From IMG/VR virus record IMGVR_UViG_2879765931_000006: a stretch of 22,395 bases of DNA, one strand, 5' to 3'. Below are positions 8,334-19,054 of this stretch, piece after piece. This stretch comes from a virus (Duplodnaviria > Heunggongvirae > Uroviricota > Caudoviricetes). The translations under genes and the position numbers were made by a program. The notes beneath the pieces were generated by a model that was given only the letters and a program-made list of their open reading frames with translations, ran no database searches and had not been told where the DNA came from. Position 1 is the stretch's first letter, and each line of letters begins with the position of its first letter.

Positions 8334-11043
8334 TTTGGGGATTGATGCGGCAGAGTTTAAAAATGAAATTCCCCGTATCAAAAACCTTCTGAATGGTGCA
8401 GCCAGCGATGCAGAACGGTCTTCTGCCCGTATGCAGCGTTTTATGGAGCGTCAGACTCAGGCGGCCCGGCAGACAATGCAGGCGGCTTCTTCGGCTGCAA
8501 CAGCAGCATCAGCCCATGCGCAGACGGTGGAGAAGAATGCACGGGCTCATGAACGCATGGCCCGTGAGGTGGAACAAACCCGTCTGCGCGTGGATGCCCT
8601 GAATCAGAAAATGCGCGAGGAACAGGCGCAGGCCAGGGCGGCTCAGCTGGGGGTAAGCAGTGCTGCAGAAGTGTATATCCGCAAAATGGAGCGGGCAGGA
8701 AAAGCCACACATTCGCTGGGGCTGAAAAGTGCGGCAGCCCGGCGGGAGCTGGGGGTGTTAATCAGTCAGATGGCGCGCGGCAATTTTGGTGCGCTGAGGG
8801 GATCCGGGATAACGCTGGCTAACCGTGCCGGATGGACAGGCGCACTGATGTCGCCGAAAGGCATGATGACTGGCGGCGTTATTGGCGGACTTGTCGCGGC
8901 GGTCCTGGGTCTGGGTAAAGCCTGGCATGACGGCCGGAAGGAGGGCGAGAAATTTAACCGTCAGCTGGCGCTGACGGGACATTATGCCGGTGTCACTGTC
9001 GGGCAGTTGTGGAAACTCAGCCGGGCCATATCCGGGAATGGTATCACGCAACATGCGGCAGCCGGTGCGCTGGCACAGGTGGTGGGCAGTGGGGCATTTC
9101 ATGGAAACGATATTGGTATGGTGGCGAAAGCTGCCGCACAGATGGAGCGATCGGTTGGCCAGTCGGTCAGCGATACCATAAATCAGTTTAAGCGGCTGAA
9201 GGATGATCCTGTAAATGCCGCGAAGGCGCTGGACAATGCGCTGCATTTTTTGAATGCCACTCAGCTTGAGCAGATACGCGTCCTTGGGGAGCAGGGGCGG
9301 TCCAGTGATGCGGCCCGGATCGCCATGTCTGCGCTGGCAGAGGAAACCGGTAAACGCACATCTGATATTGATAATAATCTCAATGCGCTGGGTAGTACGC
9401 TGCAAACCTTGTCTGACTGGTGGAAGCAGTTCTGGGATGCGGCCATGAATATTGGTCGTGAAGACTCGCTGGATGCGCAGATTGATGCGTTACAGGAAAA
9501 AATTCAGCGCGCGAAAAAATATCCGTGGACAAACGCCTCCACACAGGTGGAGTACGATCAGCAGCGTCTTAACGATCTTCAGGAGAAAAAACGCCGGAAG
9601 GATTTGCAGGATGCAAAAGCGCAGGCAGAACGGAATTACCAGGAGCAACAGAAACGCCGGAATGCTGAAAATGCCGCGCTGAACCGGATGAATGAAACGG
9701 AAGCTGCACGACATCAGCGGGAAATTGCGCGTATTAATGCCATGCAGTACGCCGACCAGGCTGTCAGGGATGCGGCGATACAGCGTGAAAATGAACGTTA
9801 CGAAAAAGCCATTAAGAAAAATACACGGGCAACCCGTAATGATGAGGCCACCCGGTTATTGCTGCAGTACAGTCAGCAGCAGGCACAGGTGGAAGGGCAG
9901 ATTGCTGCTGCCAGACAGTCAGCAGGCATTGCCACTGAAAGGATGACTGAAGCGCATAAACAGCTTCTGGCCCTGCAGCAGCGCATCAGCGACCTGGACG
10001 GGAAAAAGCTGACGGCAGATGAAAAGAGTGTGCTGGCCCGTAAGAATGAGCTGATTCAGGCGCTGACGCTGCTGGATGTGAAACAGCAGGAGCTGCAGAA
10101 ACAGACAGCGCTTAACGACCTGAGAAAAAAAACGGTTCAGCTGACCAGCCAGCTGGCAGACAAAGAACGTGCACTGCGTGAGCAGCACAATCTGGATATT
10201 GCCACTGCAGGTATGGGGGATAAGCAGCGGCAGCGCTACCAGGCACAGTTGCGCATCCGGCAGGAATACCGGCAACAGTTGCAACAGCTTGAGAATGACA
10301 GTCGCCAGAAAGGCACTTACGGGACGGAGGACTACCGGAGGGCTGAGGAGGTGCTGAAGGGGAGCCTGAAGCGACAACTGAATGAAAACAAACGCTACTG
10401 GCAGGAACTGGAAGTGGCGCAGGGCGACTGGAAAAACGGTGCCATGCGGGCGTTTCAGAATTTTACGGCGGATGCGGATAATGCGGCGGGAACGGCAGAA
10501 CAGATGTTTACAGTGGCATTCAGCAGTGCCGGTAATGCACTGGCGACATTCTGTACCACCGGTAAGCTGAATTTTAAATCCTTCACCTCTTCCCTGTTGT
10601 CAGATATGGCCAGAATTATGGCACAGATGGCCATGATGCAGGCGGTAAAGGGCGTCGGTTCTTTATTCGGCTTCACGACTAATGCTGATGGCGGTGTTTA
10701 CCAGTCTGCTGATTTGAGTCGCTACAGTGGCACGGTGGTTAACCGTCCGACGTTTTTTGCTTTTGCAAAAGGCGCGGGTGTGATGGGGGAAGCGGGACCT
10801 GAAGCCATTCTGCCACTGCGTCGCGGTGCTGATGGTAAGCTGGGGGTTGTGGCGGATACTGGTGGTTCAGGCATGGTGATGTTTGCCCCGCAGTACAACA
10901 TTGAGATCAATAACGACGGCACGAACGGGCAGATAGGTCCGGCTGCCCTGAAGGTGGTTTATGACCTCGGGAAAAAAGCGGCCGCGGACTTTATGCAACA
11001 GCAGGCCCGTGATGGTGGCCGGTTAAGTGGAGCATACCGGTAA
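8305..11043 (+). CDS. H: lambda-like tail tape measure protein H
   Basis: ~912 aa from ATG 8305 (RBS GGAGGTG); coiled-coil Q/R/E-rich centre; C-terminus ...NNDGTNGQIGPAALKVVYD...DGGRLSGAYR matches lambda gpH. Confidence 0.9.
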   Translation: MDQIANLVIDLGIDAAEFKNEIPRIKNLLNGAASDAERSSARMQRFMERQTQAARQTMQAASSAATAASAHAQTVEKNARAHERMAREVEQTRLRVDALNQKMREEQAQARAAQLGVSSAAEVYIRKMERAGKATHSLGLKSAAARRELGVLISQMARGNFGALRGSGITLANRAGWTGALMSPKGMMTGGVIGGLVAAVLGLGKAWHDGRKEGEKFNRQLALTGHYAGVTVGQLWKLSRAISGNGITQHAAAGALAQVVGSGAFHGNDIGMVAKAAAQMERSVGQSVSDTINQFKRLKDDPVNAAKALDNALHFLNATQLEQIRVLGEQGRSSDAARIAMSALAEETGKRTSDIDNNLNALGSTLQTLSDWWKQFWDAAMNIGREDSLDAQIDALQEKIQRAKKYPWTNASTQVEYDQQRLNDLQEKKRRKDLQDAKAQAERNYQEQQKRRNAENAALNRMNETEAARHQREIARINAMQYADQAVRDAAIQRENERYEKAIKKNTRATRNDEATRLLLQYSQQQAQVEGQIAAARQSAGIATERMTEAHKQLLALQQRISDLDGKKLTADEKSVLARKNELIQALTLLDVKQQELQKQTALNDLRKKTVQLTSQLADKERALREQHNLDIATAGMGDKQRQRYQAQLRIRQEYRQQLQQLENDSRQKGTYGTEDYRRAEEVLKGSLKRQLNENKRYWQELEVAQGDWKNGAMRAFQNFTADADNAAGTAEQMFTVAFSSAGNALATFCTTGKLNFKSFTSSLLSDMARIMAQMAMMQAVKGVGSLFGFTTNADGGVYQSADLSRYSGTVVNRPTFFAFAKGAGVMGEAGPEAILPLRRGADGKLGVVADTGGSGMVMFAPQYNIEINNDGTNGQIGPAALKVVYDLGKKAAADFMQQQARDGGRLSGAYR

Positions 11044-11372
11044 TGGAGACGTTTCACTGGAAAGTGCGCCCGGATATGAATGTGGTATCAGAGCCGAAAG
11101 TGGTGACAGTGAAGCTGGGCGATGGTTATGAACAGCGTCGTGCGGCGGGACTGAATAACCAGTTGTCGACTTACAGCGTGACGATACGTGTTCGTAAAGG
11201 TGAACACCCATCTTTAAAAGCCTTTCTGGAACGGCACGGTGGCGTCCGCGCATTTCAGTGGACGCCACCTTATGACTGGAAACTGATCAGGGTGGTTTGT
11301 CGTAAATGGTCGGCAAGCGTGGGGGCGTTATGGGTGACTGTAACGGCCGATTTTGAACAGGTGGTGAACTGA
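11043..11372 (+). CDS. M: lambda-like minor tail protein M
   Basis: 109 aa; ATG overlaps the H stop (TAATG); order and size match lambda gpM. Confidence 0.85.
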   Translation: METFHWKVRPDMNVVSEPKVVTVKLGDGYEQRRAAGLNNQLSTYSVTIRVRKGEHPSLKAFLERHGGVRAFQWTPPYDWKLIRVVCRKWSASVGALWVTVTADFEQVVN

Positions 11373-12070
11373 TGCAGGATATCCGGCAGGAAACACTGAA
11401 TGAATGCACCCGTGCGGAGCAGTCAGCCCGGGTGGAGCTCTGGGAAATCGATCTGACAGAGGTCGGTGGTGAGCGTTATTTTTTCTGTAATGAGCAGAAC
11501 GAAAAAGGTGAGCCGGTCACCTGGCAGGGGCGGCAGTATCAGGCATACCCCATTCAGGGGTCGGGGTTTGAACTGAACGGCAGGGGCTGTGCTGCCCGTC
11601 CGACACTGACGGTCTCTAACCTGCACGGCATGGTCACCGGGATGGCGGAAGATCTGCAGAGTCTGGTCGGCGGAACGGTGGTCCGGCGTAAGGTTTACGC
11701 CCGTTTTCTGGATGCGGTGAACTTCGTCAACGGAAACAGCGACGCCGATCCGGAACAGGAGGTGATCAGCCGCTGGCGCATCGAGCAGTGCAGCGAACTG
11801 AGCGCGGTCAGTGCCTCTTTTGTGCTGGCCACACCAACGGAGACGGATGGCGCGGTTTTCCCGGGGCGTATCATGCTGGCGAATACCTGTATGTGGACTT
11901 ACCGTTCTGATGAGTGTGGTTACACGGGCAGGGCAGTGGCTGACGAGTTCGACAAACCAACAACGGATATCCGGAAGGACAAATGCAGCAAGTGTATGCG
12001 CGGGTGTGAGTTGCGCAACAATACCGGTAATTTCGGCGGTTTCCTTTCCATCAATAAACTTTCTCAGTAA
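11372..12070 (+). CDS. L: lambda-like minor tail protein L
   Basis: 232 aa; ATG overlaps the M stop; C-terminal cysteine cluster (CMWTYRSDECGYTG...KCSKCMRGC) as in gpL. Confidence 0.85.
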   Translation: MQDIRQETLNECTRAEQSARVELWEIDLTEVGGERYFFCNEQNEKGEPVTWQGRQYQAYPIQGSGFELNGRGCAARPTLTVSNLHGMVTGMAEDLQSLVGGTVVRRKVYARFLDAVNFVNGNSDADPEQEVISRWRIEQCSELSAVSASFVLATPTETDGAVFPGRIMLANTCMWTYRSDECGYTGRAVADEFDKPTTDIRKDKCSKCMRGCELRNNTGNFGGFLSINKLSQ

Positions 12071-12074
12071 ATCC

Positions 12075-12818
12075 ATGACACAGACAGAATCAGCGATTCT
12101 GGCGCACGCCCGGCGATGTGCGCCAGCGGAGTCGTGTGGCTTCGTGGTGAGAACGCCGGAGGGAGACAGGTATCTTCCCAGCGAGAATATCTCCGGTGAG
12201 CCGGAGGAACGGTTCCGGATGGCTCCGGAGGACTGGCTGCGGGCACAAATGCAGGGTGAGATTGTGGCACTGGTCCACAGTCATCCCGGTGGTCTGCCCT
12301 GGCTGAGTGAGGCTGACCGGCGGCTGCAGGTGCAGAGTGATTTGCCGTGGTGGCTGGTCTGCCGGGGGGCGATTCACAAGTTCCGCTGTGTGCCGCATCT
12401 CACCGGGCGGCGCTTTGAGCACGGGGTGACGGACTGTTACACGCTGTTCCGGGATGCTTATCATCTGGCGGGGATTGAGATGCCGGATTTTCATCGCGGG
12501 GATGACTGGTGGCGTCACGGTCAGAATCTCTATCTGGATAATCTGGAGGCCACAGGGCTGTATCAGGTGCCGTTGTCATCAGCACAACCGGGCGATGTGC
12601 TGCTGTGCTGTTTTGGTTCATCGGTGCCGAATCATGCCGCCATTTACTGCGGCGATGGTGAGCTGCTGCACCATATTCCTGAACAACTGAGTAAACGAGA
12701 GAGGTATACCGACAAATGGCAGCGACGCACACACTCCCTCTGGCGTCACCGGGAATGGCACGCATCTGCCTTTACGGGGATTTGCAACGATTTGGCCGCC
12801 GCATCGACCTTCGTGTGA
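12075..12818 (+). CDS. K: lambda-like tail assembly protein K (JAB/MPN metalloprotease-like + NlpC/P60-like domains)
   Basis: MTQTESAILAHARRCAPAESCGFVV...HSHPGG (JAMM-like H-x-H) ...TDCYTLFRDAYH (NlpC/P60-like Cys); 3' end overlaps I out of frame by ~100 nt. Exact C-terminus uncertain. Confidence 0.8.
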   Translation: MTQTESAILAHARRCAPAESCGFVVRTPEGDRYLPSENISGEPEERFRMAPEDWLRAQMQGEIVALVHSHPGGLPWLSEADRRLQVQSDLPWWLVCRGAIHKFRCVPHLTGRRFEHGVTDCYTLFRDAYHLAGIEMPDFHRGDDWWRHGQNLYLDNLEATGLYQVPLSSAQPGDVLLCCFGSSVPNHAAIYCGDGELLHHIPEQLSKRERYTDKWQRRTHSLWRHREWHASAFTGICNDLAAASTFV

Positions 12819-13357
12819 AAACGGGGGCTGAAGCCATCCGCGCACTGGCCACACAGCTCCCGGCGTTTCGTCAGAAACTGAGTGACGGCTGGTATCAGGT
12901 GCGCATTGCCGGGCGTGATGCAGGTGAAACCGAATTGTCTGCCCGTCTTAATGAGCCGCTGGCAAATGGTGCAGTGATCCACATAGTACCGCGTCTGGTG
13001 GGAGCTAAAAGTGGCGGTGTGTTTCAGGCGGTGCTGGGGGCAGCTGTTATGGCGGTTGCTATATGGATGCCGGGGGTAGGAATTATGGCGAGTAATCTGC
13101 TGTTTTCTCTCGGTGCCAGTATGACGCTTGGCGGTGTTGCACAGATGCTGGCACCGAAAGCCAGAACTCCCCGTACACAGACAACGGATAACGGCAAACA
13201 GAACACCTGTTTCTCCTCACTGGATAACATGGTTGCCCAGGGCAATGTTCTGCCTGTTCTGTACGGTGAAATGCGCGTGGGGTCGCGGGTGGTATCTCAG
13301 GAGATCAGCACGGCAGACGAAGGGGATGGTGGTCAGGTTGTGGTGATTGGTCGCTGA
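12716..13357 (+). CDS. I: lambda-like tail assembly protein I
   Basis: MAATHTLPLASPGMARICLYGDLQRFGRRIDLRVKTGAEAIRALATQLPAFRQKL... matches lambda gpI closely; hydrophobic middle segment. Confidence 0.9.
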   Translation: MAATHTLPLASPGMARICLYGDLQRFGRRIDLRVKTGAEAIRALATQLPAFRQKLSDGWYQVRIAGRDAGETELSARLNEPLANGAVIHIVPRLVGAKSGGVFQAVLGAAVMAVAIWMPGVGIMASNLLFSLGASMTLGGVAQMLAPKARTPRTQTTDNGKQNTCFSSLDNMVAQGNVLPVLYGEMRVGSRVVSQEISTADEGDGGQVVVIGR

Positions 13358-13376
13358 TGCAAAATGTTTCATGTGA

Positions 13377-13396
13377 AACCGCCTGCGGGCGGTTTT
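13377..13396 (+). terminator. hairpin + T-run between I and J (possible attenuator)
   Basis: AACCGCC-tgcg-GGCGGTT followed by TTTTG; 7-bp stem. Confidence 0.3.
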
Positions 13397-13417
13397 GTCG
13401 TTTATGGAGCGTGAGGA

Positions 13418-16400
13418 ATGGGTAAAGGCAGCAGTAAGGGGCATACCCCGCGCGAAGCGAAGGACAACCTGAAATCCACGCAGTTGCTGAGTGTGATTGA
13501 TGCCATCAGCGAAGGGCCGGTTGACGGTCCGGTGGATGGATTAAAAAGCGTGCTGCTGAACGGTACGCCGGTCCTGGATAGCGAGGGGAAGACAAACTTT
13601 TCCGGTGTTACGGTGGTGTTCCGCGCCGGCGAGCAGGAGCAGACACCGCCGGAGGGGTTTGAATCTTCCGGCTCAGAGACTGTGCTGGGTACGGAAGTGA
13701 AATACGACACGCCGATCACCCGGACCATCACGTCGGCAAACATTGATCGTCTGCGCCTGACCTTCGGTGTGCAGGCACTGGTGGAAACCACCTCAAAGGG
13801 GGACCGGAATCCGTCGGAAGTCCGCCTGCTGGTTCAGATACAGCGTAACGGTGGCTGGGTGACGGAAAAAGACATCACCATTAAGGGCAAAACCACTTCG
13901 CAGTATCTGGCCTCGGTGGTGGTGGGTAACCTGCCGCCGCGCCCGTTTAATATCCGGATGCGCAGGATGACACCGGACAGCACCACAGACCAGCTGCAGA
14001 ACAAAACGCTCTGGTCGTCGTACACCGAAATCATCGATGTGAAACAGTGCTACCCGAACACGGCGCTGGTCGGCGTGCAGGTGGATTCAGAGCAGTTCGG
14101 TAACCAGCAGGTGAGTCGCAATTATCATCTTCGCGGGCGCATTCTGCAGGTGCCGTCGAACTATAACCCGCAGACGCGGCAATACAGCGGTATCTGGGAC
14201 GGAACGCTTAAGCCAGCATACAGCAACAACATGGCCTGGTGTCTGTGGGACATGCTCACTCATCCGCGCTACGGCATGGGGAAACGTCTTGGTGCGGCAG
14301 ATGTGGACAAATGGGCGCTGTATGTCATCGGCCAGTACTGCGACCAGTCAGTGCCGGACGGATTTGGCGGCACGGAGCCGCGCATCACCTGTAACGCTTA
14401 CCTGACCACACAGCGTAAGGCGTGGGATGTTCTCAGTGATTTCTGCTCGGCGATGCGCTGTATGCCGGTATGGAACGGGCAGACGCTGACGTTCGTGCAG
14501 GACCGACCGTCGGATAAAGTGTGGACCTATAACCGCAGTAATGTGGTGATGCCGGATGATGGCGCGCCGTTCCGCTACAGCTTCAGCGCCCTGAAGGACC
14601 GCCATAATGTCGTTGAGGTGAACTGGATTGATCCGGACAACGGTCATGAGACGGCGACAGAGCTTGTGGAGGACACGCAGGCCATTGTCCGTTACGGTCG
14701 TAACGTCACGAAGATGGATGCCTTTGGCTGTACCAGCCGGGGACAGGCGCACCGCGCCGGGCTGTGGCTGATTAAAACGGAACTGCTGGAAACGCAGACC
14801 GTGGACTTCAGCGTCGGCGCAGAAGGGCTTCGCCATGTACCGGGTGATGTCATTGAAATCTGCGATGATGATTATGCCGGTATCAGCACCGGTGGTCGCG
14901 TACTGGCGGTGAACAGCCAGACCCGGACGCTGACGCTCGACCGTGAAATCACGCTGCCGTCCTCCGGTACCACGCTGATAAGCTTGGTTGACGGAAATGG
15001 CAATCCGGTCAGCGTGGAGGTTCAGTCCGTCACCGACGGCGTGAAGGTGAAAGTGAGCCGGGTTCCTGACGGCGTTGCAGAATACAGCGTGTGGGGGCTG
15101 AAGCTGCCGACGCTGCGCCAGCGCCTGTTCCGCTGCGTGAGTATCCGTGAGAACGACGACGGCACGTATGCCATCACCGCCGTGCAGCATGTGCCGGAAA
15201 AAGAGGCCATCGTGGATAACGGGGCACACTTTGACGGTGACCGGCGCGGCACGGTGAATGGTGTCACGCCGCCAGCGGTGCAGCATCTGACCGCCGAAGT
15301 CACCGCAGACAGCGGGGAATATCAGGTGCTGGCGCGATGGGACACGCCGAAGGTGGTGAAGGGTGTGAGCTTCCTGCTTCGCCTGACCGTGGCAGCGGAC
15401 GACGGCAGTGAGCGGCTGGTCAGCACAGCCAGGACGACGGAAACCACATACCGCTTCAGGCAGCTGGCGCTGGGGAATTACAGTCTGACAGTCCGGGCGG
15501 TAAATGCCCGGGGGCAGCAGGGCGATCCGGCGTCGGTATCGTTCCGGATTGCGGCACCGGCAGCGCCTGTCACTATTGAACTGATACCGGGGTATTTTCA
15601 GATAACGGTGGTCCCGAAACTGGCTGTATATGACCCGACGGTGCAGTTTGAGTTCTGGTTTTCGGAAAAGCGGATTGCGGATATCAGGCAGGTTGAAACC
15701 AGCGCCCGCTATCTTGGCACGGCGCTGTACTGGATAGCCGCCAGTATCAATATCAGGCCGGGCCATGATTATTATTTTTACGTTCGCAGTGTGAACACCG
15801 TTGGCAAATCGGCATTTGTGGAGGCCGTCGGTCGGGCGAGCGATGATGCGGAAGGTTATCTGAGTTTTTATAAAGGGTTGATCAATAAAACGCATCTCGG
15901 CAAGGAGTTGTGGACGCAGATTGATAACGGTCAGCTTGCGCCGGACCTGACTGAAATCAGGACGTCCATTACGAATGTCAGCAATGAAATCACGCAAACC
16001 GTCAATAAAAAACTGGAAAATCAGAGTGCTGCAATCCAGCAGATACAGAAAGTTCAGGTTGATACAAATAATAACCTGAACAGCATGTGGGCTGTGAAGC
16101 TGCAACAGATGAAGGACGGACGCCTTTATATTGCGTGGTATCGGTGCCGGTATTGAGAATACGCCAGCAGGAATGCAGAGTCAGGTGCTGCTGGCGGCAG
16201 ACAGGATTGCGATGATTAATCCTGCGAATGGCAACACAAAGCCGATGTTTGTTGGTCAGGGCGATCAGATATTCATGAACGACGTGTTCCTGAAACGCCT
16301 GACGGCTCCGACCATTACCAGCGGCGGTAATCCTCCGGCATTTTCCCTGACACCTGGCGGACGGCTGACGGCGAAAAATGCCGATATCAGCGGTAACGTG

Positions 16401-16898
16401 AACGCGAACTCCGGGACGCTCAACAACGTCACGATTAATAAGAACTGTCGGGTTCTGGGAAAATTGTCCGCGAACCAGATTGAAGGCGATCTCGTTAAAA
16501 CAGTGGGCAAACCTTTCCCACGGGACTCCCGGGCACCGGAGAGGTGGCCATCAGGGACCATTACCGTCAGGGTTTATGACGATCAGCCGTTTGATCGGCA
16601 AATTGTTATTCCCGCGGTGGCGTTTCGCGGTGCTAAACATGAGCGGAAGAATAACAATATTTATTCGTCATGCCGCCTGATAGTGAAGAAAAACGGTGCT
16701 GAAATTTATAACCGAACGACCCTGGATAATACGCTGATATATACGGGTGTTATTGATATGCCTGCCGGTCACGGTCACATGACGCTGGAGTTTTCTGTAT
16801 CGGCATGGCTGGTAAATGGCTGGTATCCCACAGCAAGTATCAGCGATTTGCTGGTTGTTGTGATGAAGAAATCCACAGCAGGTATCAGTATCAGCTGA
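13418..16898 (+). pseudogene. J: lambda-like tail tip / host specificity protein J, interrupted by a +1 frameshift near 16136 (ORFs 13418..16156 and 16131..16898)
   Basis: N-terminal 912 aa track lambda gpJ from [24 protein letters not shown] onward, then the frame ends ...[12 protein letters not shown]-stop. The next frame resumes [32 protein letters not shown]..., which is the contiguous J sequence. Junction reads gcgTggtatcggtgcc against expected gcgggtatcggtgcc. Confidence 0.8.
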
Positions 16899-16917
16899 AT
16901 TTTATAACCCAGATACG

Positions 16918-16941
16918 GGCACCAGAAATGGTGCCTTTTTT
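16918..16941 (+). terminator. intrinsic terminator after J (GGCACC-agaaat-GGTGCC + T6)
   Basis: Perfect 6-bp stem followed by TTTTTTATT. Confidence 0.6.
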
Positions 16942-16965
16942 ATTGCAGAAAAGCGAGAGGTAATT

Positions 16966-17565
16966 ATGCGTAAACTTTATGCTGCCATTTTGTCCGCAGC
17001 CATCTGTCTGGCTGTATCCGGTGCGCCTGCATGGGCGTCTGAACATCAGTCCACGCTGAGCGCGGGGTATCTTCATGCCTCGACGAACGCTCCCGGCAGT
17101 GATGATCTGAACGGGATTAACGTGAAATACCGTTATGAGTTTACGGACACGCTGGGGCTGGTGACGTCATTCAGCTATGCCAACGCTGAAGATGAGCAAA
17201 AAACGCATTACAGTGATACCCGCTGGCATGAGGATTCCGTGCGTAACCGCTGGTTCAGCGTGATGGCGGGGCTGTCTGTGCGCGTGAATGAATGGTTCAG
17301 CGCGTATGCGATGGCGGGCGTGGCTTACAGCCGTGTGTCGACCTTCTCCGGGGATTATCTCCGCGTAACTGACAACAAGGGGAAAACGCACGATGTGCTG
17401 ACCGGGAGTGATGACAACCGCCACAGCAACACGTCTCTGGCGTGGGGGGCTGGCGTGCAGTTTAACCCGACCGAATCCGTGGCCATTGACCTTGCTTATG
17501 AAGGTTCCGGCAGTGGCGACTGGCGCACTGACGGTTTCATCGTGGGTGTCGGTTATAAGTTCTGA
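16966..17565 (+). CDS. lom: Lom/Ail/PagC-family outer membrane beta-barrel protein
   Basis: 199 aa with signal peptide ([24 protein letters not shown]), alternating beta-strand pattern, C-terminal aromatic residue (…GVGYKF); sits after J as lom does in lambda. Confidence 0.85.
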
Positions 17566-17591
17566 TTAGCCAGGTAACACAGTGTTATGAC

Positions 17592-17618
17592 AGCCCGCTG
17601 GTTCAGGCGGGCTTTTTG
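17592..17618 (+). terminator. intrinsic terminator after lom (AGCCCGC-tggttcag-GCGGGCT + T5)
   Basis: 7-bp perfect stem followed by TTTTT. Confidence 0.6.
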
Positions 17619-17628
17619 TGGGGTGAAT

Positions 17629-19044
17629 ATGGCAGTAAAGATTTCAGGTGTACTGAAAGATGGGGCGGGTAAACCTGTCGTAAATTGTGCGATTGAACTG
17701 CGGGCCAGAAGAACCAGTCCGACCGTTGTGGCACACGTTGTTGCCACTTGCGTGACGGACAATAACGGTGCTTATGTGATTGAGGCTGAGCCGGGGTATT
17801 ACGAGGTTGCGCTTCACTGTAACGGCTGGCAGCCAACCCGTGTCGGGGATATTGATGTGGCACCGACTGATGCACCGGGGACACTGAACGCGTTTCTGAA
17901 TGCACCAAAGGATGGTGATTTACGTCCGGAGGTGATGAAGCGCTTTGAGGAAATGGTGGCGCAGGCGCAGCAGAGTGCCGGGGCTGCAGCCGGAAACGCA
18001 CAGCAGACGGCGCAGGATGTGGCGGCAGCCGCAACGGCCCGTGATGATGCACAACGTTTTGCGGAGAAAGCCCGACAGGATGCAACCGTCACAGCTGAGG
18101 ACAGAAAGGCCACTGCGGAAGATGTGACAAGCACAGGAGCAAATGCAGCCGCAGCCGGACAGAGCGCACAGGATGCCGCAGGTTATGCCCGCGCAGCAGA
18201 ACAGGCCAAAAATGACATTGATGCTGCGCTGACCGGCACTCTGAAAATGGCTAACCATCTGTCAGAAATCGCAGCAGCAGGCGAAAAGGCACAACAGAAG
18301 TCCCGGGATAATCTGGGGCTGAAAAGTGCGGCCACGATGGAAGCACAGAGCGACATTTACGACCGGACAAAAGGCCGTCTGGCGATACCCGGCGCATTCG
18401 GCTTTGGGTGTGCTTTTCTGCCTGAAGATGTTATCCGTTTTGACACTAAGAGTGATTTCCTGGCCTGGGTAAGGAATGCGCTGCCAGGTGAATATTCCGT
18501 TGCTGGCCCCTACGGCATCATCATACCCGACACACGGTTTGAAGGGGTGCTCAGCATCCGGTGGACTGATGCACGCCCTGAGACAACAGAACCGCGGTAC
18601 AGAGCCAAATCCCTTACTTTTTACGGCATTAACGGCCCCATTTATCACACCCGCTACTGCTACTGGCCCATATCCAGACTGACTGACTGGGTGAAAATAA
18701 ATATAACCACAGAAGATATTATTTACAGAATCGTGGCGAGCTCTGTCCGCAACAGATGGGGAGACCCTGACATTGGCGGGCTGATTATTGCTGCGTACCA
18801 GGGAGAAGCTGACGGTGATAAAGTCATCAGACTTGTCAGGGGGCAGTCATACAGAGGCTCACGACTGGGACCGGTGGGGATTTCAGTGCCCAGTACTCCC
18901 ACCGGAACGTATATAGCATCCCCACAATTTTTCATTACGGGATGTTCAGAGCATTCATTACCAGGGTCATATTGCGCCCTGTCCGGGGTGCCGGATGCTC
19001 ATGTCTCTGGCGCAATGCCCGGGCTTTTTATTCGCACATCGTGA
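17629..19044 (+). CDS. stf: side tail fiber protein (lambda Stf-like N-terminus, Ala-rich central region, divergent C-terminal receptor-binding region)
   Basis: MAVKISGVLKDGAGKPVVNCAIELRARRTSPTVV... matches the lambda Stf N-terminus (MAVKISGVLKDGTGKPV...); Ala/Gln-rich central repeats; C-terminal third has no lambda counterpart I recognise. The ORF track starts it at 17587; ATG 17629 is preferred. Confidence 0.8.
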   Translation: MAVKISGVLKDGAGKPVVNCAIELRARRTSPTVVAHVVATCVTDNNGAYVIEAEPGYYEVALHCNGWQPTRVGDIDVAPTDAPGTLNAFLNAPKDGDLRPEVMKRFEEMVAQAQQSAGAAAGNAQQTAQDVAAAATARDDAQRFAEKARQDATVTAEDRKATAEDVTSTGANAAAAGQSAQDAAGYARAAEQAKNDIDAALTGTLKMANHLSEIAAAGEKAQQKSRDNLGLKSAATMEAQSDIYDRTKGRLAIPGAFGFGCAFLPEDVIRFDTKSDFLAWVRNALPGEYSVAGPYGIIIPDTRFEGVLSIRWTDARPETTEPRYRAKSLTFYGINGPIYHTRYCYWPISRLTDWVKINITTEDIIYRIVASSVRNRWGDPDIGGLIIAAYQGEADGDKVIRLVRGQSYRGSRLGPVGISVPSTPTGTYIASPQFFITGCSEHSLPGSYCALSGVPDAHVSGAMPGLFIRTS

Positions 19045-19054
19045 GGAATGCACC

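Follow-up and report, generated by a model that had tools for sequence, protein, structure and literature searches.

In Shigella flexneri, a defective lambdoid prophage remnant at the yecD/aspS locus, which carries the effector gene ipaH, has its gene for the host specificity protein J broken by one inserted T. The remnant is contained in the IMG/VR record IMGVR_UViG_2879765931_000006 (Caudoviricetes), a stretch of 22,395 nucleotides (nt) which is called the window here and whose numbering is used for all positions unless another locus is named. With high confidence we explain the whole finding as follows: J became a pseudogene in an element that was already dead, the insertion had a single origin, and it was then copied by gene conversion between two loci of the chromosome.

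Positions 3418-22395 of the window are 100% identical to S. flexneri CP026871.1, positions 3511175-3533913 (GCA_002950195.1; locus L005). For comparison we used the three closest J genes in complete Escherichia coli genomes (L001-L003; FDAARGOS_943, O121 201805972 and FDAARGOS_944, E. coli or enteroinvasive E. coli, EIEC), ten S. flexneri loci with the frameshift from seven assemblies, complete genomes as well as drafts (L004-L013), and ten loci of an alternative haplotype with an intact J (L015-L024). The yecD prophage of the EIEC strain RMDEC332 (L014), which is about 43 kb in length and apparently complete, served as reference orthologue for missing modules.

A single inserted nucleotide splits gene J

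In the window, J is not a single uninterrupted open reading frame (ORF) of about 1130 to 1160 codons. It is split at position 16136 into two ORFs of 912 and 255 amino acids (aa):

13418-16156, plus strand: 5' part of J, 912 aa, consisting of 906 native residues and the out-of-frame residues WYRCRY, followed by TGA; the hub, FNIII-A, Ig_J, Ig_J_second and the helix bundle are kept
16136, plus strand: inserted T, a +1 frameshift mutation with a G on either side
16137-16898, plus strand: 3' remainder of J in the +1 frame relative to the 5' part, as a mechanical ORF starting from TTG 16131; contains PF09327 (profile positions 36-138) and PF12421

Positions 16130-16145 spell a-ttg-cg-T-ggtatcggtgcc, and the reading across the site is ...tat att gcg T ggt atc ggt gcc ggt att gag... 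When the whole J region was aligned with L001-L003 by MAFFT, the T at 16136 was the sole indel specific for the window; the only other indel in this alignment is a 6-nt deletion private to L003. Removal of the T yields an ORF of 3480 nt and 1159 aa with no internal stop.

An earlier, sequence-only reading of this DNA had proposed that one T inserted at about 16136, outside any homopolymer, splits a J of about 1160 aa. The sequence, the ORFs and the alignment confirm the insertion and the split, and the repaired ORF agrees well with the length expected. Coordinates, sequence context and translated peptides proved to be correct when the DNA and both frames were read again, and the T does stand outside any homopolymer. 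The alignment to related Shigella and E. coli J alleles, which had been suggested as a check, was run: the T is missing from L001-L003 and from the majority allele of S. flexneri. On the minus strand, an antisense ORF of 585 aa (14348-16105) lies wholly within J; it is probably a consequence of the long sense ORF rather than a gene.

Domains of J and comparison with lambda gpJ

The Pfam families of the hub and of the FNIII/Ig series (PF24801, PF13550, PF24421 and PF24489) all have matches in the 912-aa fragment (E-values 4e-38 to 6e-43), and the domains found there are FNIII-A_GpJ, Phage-tail_3, Ig_J and Ig_J_second. The downstream ORF of 255 aa contains positions 36-138 of the Phage_Tail_Tip profile (PF09327) and the whole of Ig_GpJ_C (PF12421), the receptor-binding domain (RBD). 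Since the match to PF09327 begins only at profile position 36, the frameshift cuts this domain.

With the restored J as query, a phmmer search against PDB found lambda gpJ (8iyk_J) with 2137.9 bits in total. Residues 1-836 align to gpJ 1-836 without any gap (8iyk, 1823 bits) and residues 867-1158 align to gpJ 839-1131 (319 bits). The C-terminal part of lambda gpJ is built from FNIII domains, the AHS helix bundle (809-861), a central straight fibre and the RBD (PMC11101478). The break follows A906, which corresponds to A878 of gpJ; it lies just past the AHS helix bundle, at the top of the central straight fibre and upstream of the RBD.

The restored protein is thus collinear with lambda gpJ (PDB 8iyk, 8k35, 8xcj) in hub, FNIII/Ig domains, helix bundle, central straight fibre and C-terminal RBD, and the tail genes of the window have the same order as in lambda, M-L-K-I-J-lom-stf-tfa. 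It differs from gpJ, besides the broken frame, in a segment of about 30 residues (837-866) that lies outside both aligned stretches, and it is 27 residues longer. Because the fibre and RBD region scores 319 bits compared to 1823 bits for the N-terminal part, the original receptor specificity may not have been LamB.

The Pfam domains and the alignment to gpJ support the lambda-type identity which the sequence-only reading had given to J. Its statement that the truncation falls before the C-terminal receptor-binding region also holds, with Ig_GpJ_C left in the downstream fragment. As judged from its two frames, J of the window is a pseudogene of the lambda-type tail tip attachment protein family (TipJ/gpJ) and not a functional member. 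An independent inactivation in another lineage is found in E. coli O121 201805972 (L002), where the orthologous J (1819-5298) has an internal stop and bears the annotation of a pseudogene.

Distribution of the inserted T in public genomes

Public assemblies contain the 912-aa product without any change in 798 blocks and on 704 contigs, where it is named 'host specificity protein J [Shigella flexneri]'; the downstream fragment of 255 aa has been deposited as a separate coding sequence (CDS) on 777 contigs. Assemblies with the T comprise complete genomes and drafts from different projects. All ten S. flexneri loci L004-L013 possess it; it is absent from L001-L003, from the ten loci of the intact haplotype and from the EIEC outgroup.

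The repaired protein of 1159 aa is exactly Q81ZS6_SHIFL, also deposited as 'MULTISPECIES: host specificity protein J [Shigella]', and occurs in 4,943 blocks. The inserted T is therefore a minority allele within S. flexneri (798 blocks versus 4,943 for the intact allele). Since the EIEC outgroups are also without the T, the intact J is the ancestral state. The intact S. flexneri allele encodes the protein that the window would encode after removal of the T and stands at the same two loci of the chromosome, between the same flanks, but its haplotype lacks both the T and a 303-nt deletion in gene H, and has instead a 4-nt deletion in stf.

Searches outside of S. flexneri were negative. Among 7,073 J sites in 5,426 complete E. 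coli genomes, no perfect match to the 61-mer with the T was obtained (best 60/61). An exact search for the mutant 41-mer gave no match in the GTDB species-representative genomes, which is uninformative, as Shigella is probably not a separate representative there. The same search gave no match in the IMG/VR viral contigs, consistent with there being no free phage that bears the lesion.

The lesion is present in two remnants of each genome

The sequence-only reading knew of one split J. This lesion is real, and the description has to be refined: these genomes have a second, paralogous remnant with the same lesion, so that the truncated J occurs twice per genome. The copy at the yecD/aspS locus, which is the one in the window, is neighboured by a gene for a 583-aa IpaH, by dinI and by an isochorismatase-family gene interrupted by an insertion sequence (IS). 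The other copy is adjacent to the bio genes (bioA/B/F), with a gene for a 587-aa IpaH and a PBP-family gene as further neighbours. Both share a long tract, and in addition to J a second gene within it is affected:

5825-20726, no strand assigned: near-identical tract, taken as the putative gene-conversion tract with the J lesion, about 14.9 kb; it comprises late head-tail genes, all tail genes, lom, stf, tfa and the 3' NEL-coding half of ipaH
8275-11043, plus strand: gene H (tape measure), mechanical ORF from TTG 8275; the gene call in L005 is 8305-11043 with 912 aa; contains a 303-nt in-frame deletion

Within-genome comparison of the locus pairs L004/L005, L006/L007, L016/L017 and L018/L019 revealed 1-4 differences over 14.0-14.9 kb, and densely diverging flanks. 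For L005 versus L004, only 4 sparse differences lie between the boundaries of dense divergence at 5825 and 20726. The tract begins in the head-tail/Z-U region, where its left end varies by strain (5825, 6266, 6282, 6751), while the right end is fixed at 20726 within ipaH.

For the haplotypes we compared three genomes with the frameshift and eight genomes with an intact J, two of the eight at both loci. In the shared tract there are two haplotypes that differ at only six places. Two of these are the inserted T in J and the deletion in H, which removes 303 nt (101 codons) at the junction 8631/8632 with an 8-nt microhomology. The H deletion is derived in the frameshift haplotype, in comparison with EIEC and with the majority haplotype of S. 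flexneri; it was found in all frameshift-haplotype loci examined, in complete linkage with the T, and H has 912 aa there versus 1013 aa in the other haplotype. Three further places are single-nucleotide polymorphisms (SNPs) at 8778 (C/A), at 12369 (G/A) and at 17048 (A/G), the last of which is not fully fixed (A in L020 and L023). The sixth is a 4-nt deletion in stf (window 18677-18680), derived in the intact-J haplotype, which leaves a truncated stf of 367 aa; the window has an open stf (17587-19044, 485 aa). The predicted gene products indicate that each S. flexneri haplotype has inactivated a different fibre gene, J in the one and stf in the other.

In every genome for which both loci were examined, each of the six changes was present in both copies. 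The same is true for strain-specific changes: the SNPs 6989 and 14984 (T for C) are private to the genome of the window and present in both of its copies (L004, L005), and SNP 18201 is present in both copies of GCA_000815665. The shared private SNPs 6989 and 14984 indicate a probable recent conversion event in the strain of the window. The two copies are in opposite chromosomal orientation and could also mediate inversions.

Some further changes were observed at single loci. At the bio-adjacent locus of GCA_002950195.1 (L004), an IS1 (450-743) interrupts the major capsid gene, and at about 6764-6796 of the same locus an extra A (corresponding to window 10124) splits H into ORFs of 625 aa and 276 aa, which is either further decay or a homopolymer error in the assembly. 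In the bio-adjacent locus of GCA_048288445.1 (L015), a patch of about 1.2 kb in L and K (corresponding to window 11401-12556) is densely divergent from the other S. flexneri loci and partly EIEC-like, which suggests a recombinant segment from another lambdoid element.

Head and lysis genes were lost before the insertion in J

The element lacks more than a functional J. To the left of the tail genes the following element is located:

3563-5014, minus strand: IS110-like element of the ISEc20 family, transposase 3587-4783 with the Pfam domains DEDD_Tnp_IS110 and Transposase_20; 99.2% identical to annotated ISEc20 copies

BLAST segments of the window against the EIEC prophage L014 jump from L014 15713 to 25899 across this element, and about 10.2 kb (L014 15714-25898) are gone. 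The modules missing in comparison to L014 are those for holin, lysozyme, Rz, both terminase subunits, head-tail joining, portal, protease, decoration and major capsid proteins. The IS110 transposase lies 263-264 nt upstream of FI in genomes with the frameshift and with an intact J alike. As the spacing is the same in both haplotypes, the loss of head and lysis genes predates the insertion in J, and being older, it would have left J already free of selection for phage function.

The sequence-only reading had connected the broken J with a non-infective, decaying prophage. It was right about the decay, but the phage was not killed by the J lesion, since the IS110-associated loss came earlier. For a prophage that was already defunct, the lesion in J amounts to ordinary gene decay. 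Another copy of this IS110/ISEc20 element interrupts the isochorismatase-family gene just past the right end of the window (L005 19674-21136).

The ipaH cargo and other features of the remnant

The remaining features comprise the effector gene at the right end and what is left of the early region:

19798-21549, minus strand: ipaH, full-length ORF of 583 aa with LRR_TTSS and NEL E3 ligase domains; annotated as ipaHd in EIEC orthologues
21745-21761, minus strand: MxiE-box-like motif GTATCGTTTTTTTACAT, differing from the consensus at 1 position; about 200 nt separate it from the downstream ipaH start
1-1217, plus strand: IS3-family, IS600-like element, orfA 1-303 and orfB 330-1169, with the Pfam domains HTH_Tnp_1 and rve; the early region is truncated
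2578-2887, strand not given: four clustered tRNA genes (Met/Ile-type CAT, Arg-TCT, Thr-TGT, Gly-TCC), which lie downstream of the gene for the Q antiterminator

The MxiE-box-like motif was the one match obtained, compared to 0.01 expected by chance; the consensus used is that of the MxiE box. An ipaH cargo with such a motif fits the usual view that remnants of this kind persist as carriers of ipaH. At the left end, window positions 1174-1218 match the DNA just outside the annotated IS600 transposase CDS in L014. A RusA gene, the Q antiterminator gene and the tRNA cluster are the leftovers of the early region. The tRNA cluster is conserved in the EIEC prophage, where its first gene is annotated as tRNA-Ile.

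Discussion

The inserted T in J is best regarded as a real, non-programmed single-base mutation. That it is a sequencing or assembly error and the true gene a continuous J of 1159 aa is very improbable. Single-base indels are the commonest assembly errors, and an intact allele whose protein is otherwise the same is frequent in S. flexneri. However, the exact truncated product recurs in many independent projects, in complete as well as draft assemblies, the T is not part of a homopolymer, and it is completely linked to the H deletion and to the other haplotype markers, which would not be expected of a random error. On account of these many assemblies and of this linkage we rejected sequencing error. 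We give just as little credit to the idea that the split is functional, either by a programmed +1 frameshift that restores full-length J or by assembly of the two ORFs into a working two-piece tail tip. Such a function could find some support in the in-frame TTG 16131 of the downstream ORF, which overlaps the upstream ORF, and in the fact that every other tail gene in the tract is still open. The split is not conserved, though: it is found neither in the 7,073 E. coli J sites nor in the EIEC orthologues or in the majority allele of S. flexneri. Within 16136-16156 (TGG TAT CGG TGC CGG TAT TGA), where the stop follows after 18 nt, no codon permitting re-pairing of a tRNA in the +1 frame was seen, by inspection only, and a search for the G-T slippery heptamer of lambda (GGGAAAG) gave just one irrelevant match on the minus strand. 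The nearest AGGA lies 14 nt upstream of TTG 16131, which is a poor spacing for initiation, and the break falls inside PF09327, a trimeric fibre domain. In an element without head or lysis genes, a working tail tip would serve no purpose. Both forms of recoding were therefore rejected, for the unconserved split, the lack of a shift-prone codon and the poor ribosome-binding context of TTG 16131.

How the same lesion came to stand at two loci is a separate question. Instead of conversion between resident copies, two independent identical mutations might have occurred, or one incoming phage might have replaced both tail modules. Lambdoid phages readily recombine with resident prophages, and only five genomes were compared at both loci. 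Nevertheless, we consider these explanations improbable. Six haplotype-defining changes, two of them indels besides the T, are common to both loci of a genome, and so are the strain-private SNPs; parallel mutation cannot explain this. A donor phage with a frameshifted J could not infect, none carrying the T was found in IMG/VR by the exact 41-mer search, and the ends of the tract differ between strains, as is expected of repeated internal conversion. With parallel mutation unable to account for the sharing and a donor phage with a broken J implausible, recurrent gene conversion is the parsimonious reading. Most likely, recurrent intrachromosomal gene conversion between the two remnants copied the J lesion. 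More generally, it is probable that the two ipaH remnants evolve in concert by recurrent conversion over about 14-15 kb, so that lesions (the T in J and the deletion in H, or the 4-nt deletion in stf) were copied across and not accumulated independently.

At this point we want to name the arguments which weigh against our explanation. The call of the T rests on the agreement of assemblies, and the J fragments are predicted products. Repeat collapse or polishing can inflate the identity of 14-kb repeats. The retained 1-4 private differences per genome and the variable tract ends argue for separately assembled copies, as far as assemblies can tell. Both loci were examined in only three genomes with the frameshift and two with an intact J.

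From these observations we propose the following history of decay and conversion. An IS110-associated deletion would first have removed the lysis, packaging and capsid genes. Thereafter J would have drifted neutrally, with the element being kept as a carrier of the gene ipaH for an effector of the type III secretion system. The T probably goes back to a single event in one S. flexneri sublineage, where the 303-nt in-frame deletion in H arose with it. Translation would stop six codons past the insertion, and the product would extend from the tail-tip hub through the FNIII/Ig domains to the helix bundle, with almost nothing left of the straight fibre and the RBD. Lacking this domain, any tail that was made could not bind its receptor; as the lysis, packaging and capsid genes had already been lost, the lesion in J would have been without consequence for the phage. 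The T would then have been copied by intrachromosomal conversion between the yecD/aspS-adjacent and the bio-adjacent remnants, over the tract of about 14-15 kb.

Parallels to the parts of this history are known. In laboratory lambda (PaPa), stf carries a frameshift (PMC11101478). Here too, a fibre gene of a lambdoid element is inactivated by a small frameshift, and the 4-nt deletion in the stf of S. flexneri echoes the one in lambda PaPa. In contrast to the latter, the lesion in the window affects the essential central fibre gene J and not the dispensable stf, and the element can no longer form particles.

In E. coli O157 (Sakai), large near-identical segments are common to co-resident defective lambdoid prophages. 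With its IS insertions and an ipaH effector gene at the right end of a lambdoid prophage remnant, the window resembles the ipaH islands on the S. flexneri chromosome, of which I-V had been characterised earlier, as cited in PMC4226921. In our literature search, which returned only a passing mention of islands I-V, there was no description of the T in J or of a concerted evolution of two ipaH islands. Frameshift pseudogenes and concerted evolution are both well-known kinds of phenomena, and both J fragments have already been deposited hundreds of times as separate CDSs.

For phage biology, the finding has little weight, as a frameshifted structural gene is to be expected in an IS-riddled prophage remnant of Shigella. 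Its use is rather a practical one. The T, with the linked 303-nt deletion in H and the reciprocal 4-nt deletion in stf, is a clean binary marker which splits S. flexneri into two haplotype groups and may serve typing. For annotators, the pair of 912-aa and 255-aa ORFs should count as one pseudogene, and these repeats of about 14 kb call for caution in short-read variant calling and assembly.

The markers at both loci provide a clear and quantifiable example of concerted evolution between co-resident defective prophages. If the conversion reading is true, prophage decay in Shigella would be partly 'contagious' between co-resident remnants, and the tract, anchored in the conserved NEL-coding half of ipaH, would be a standing substrate for recombination between distant sites of the chromosome.

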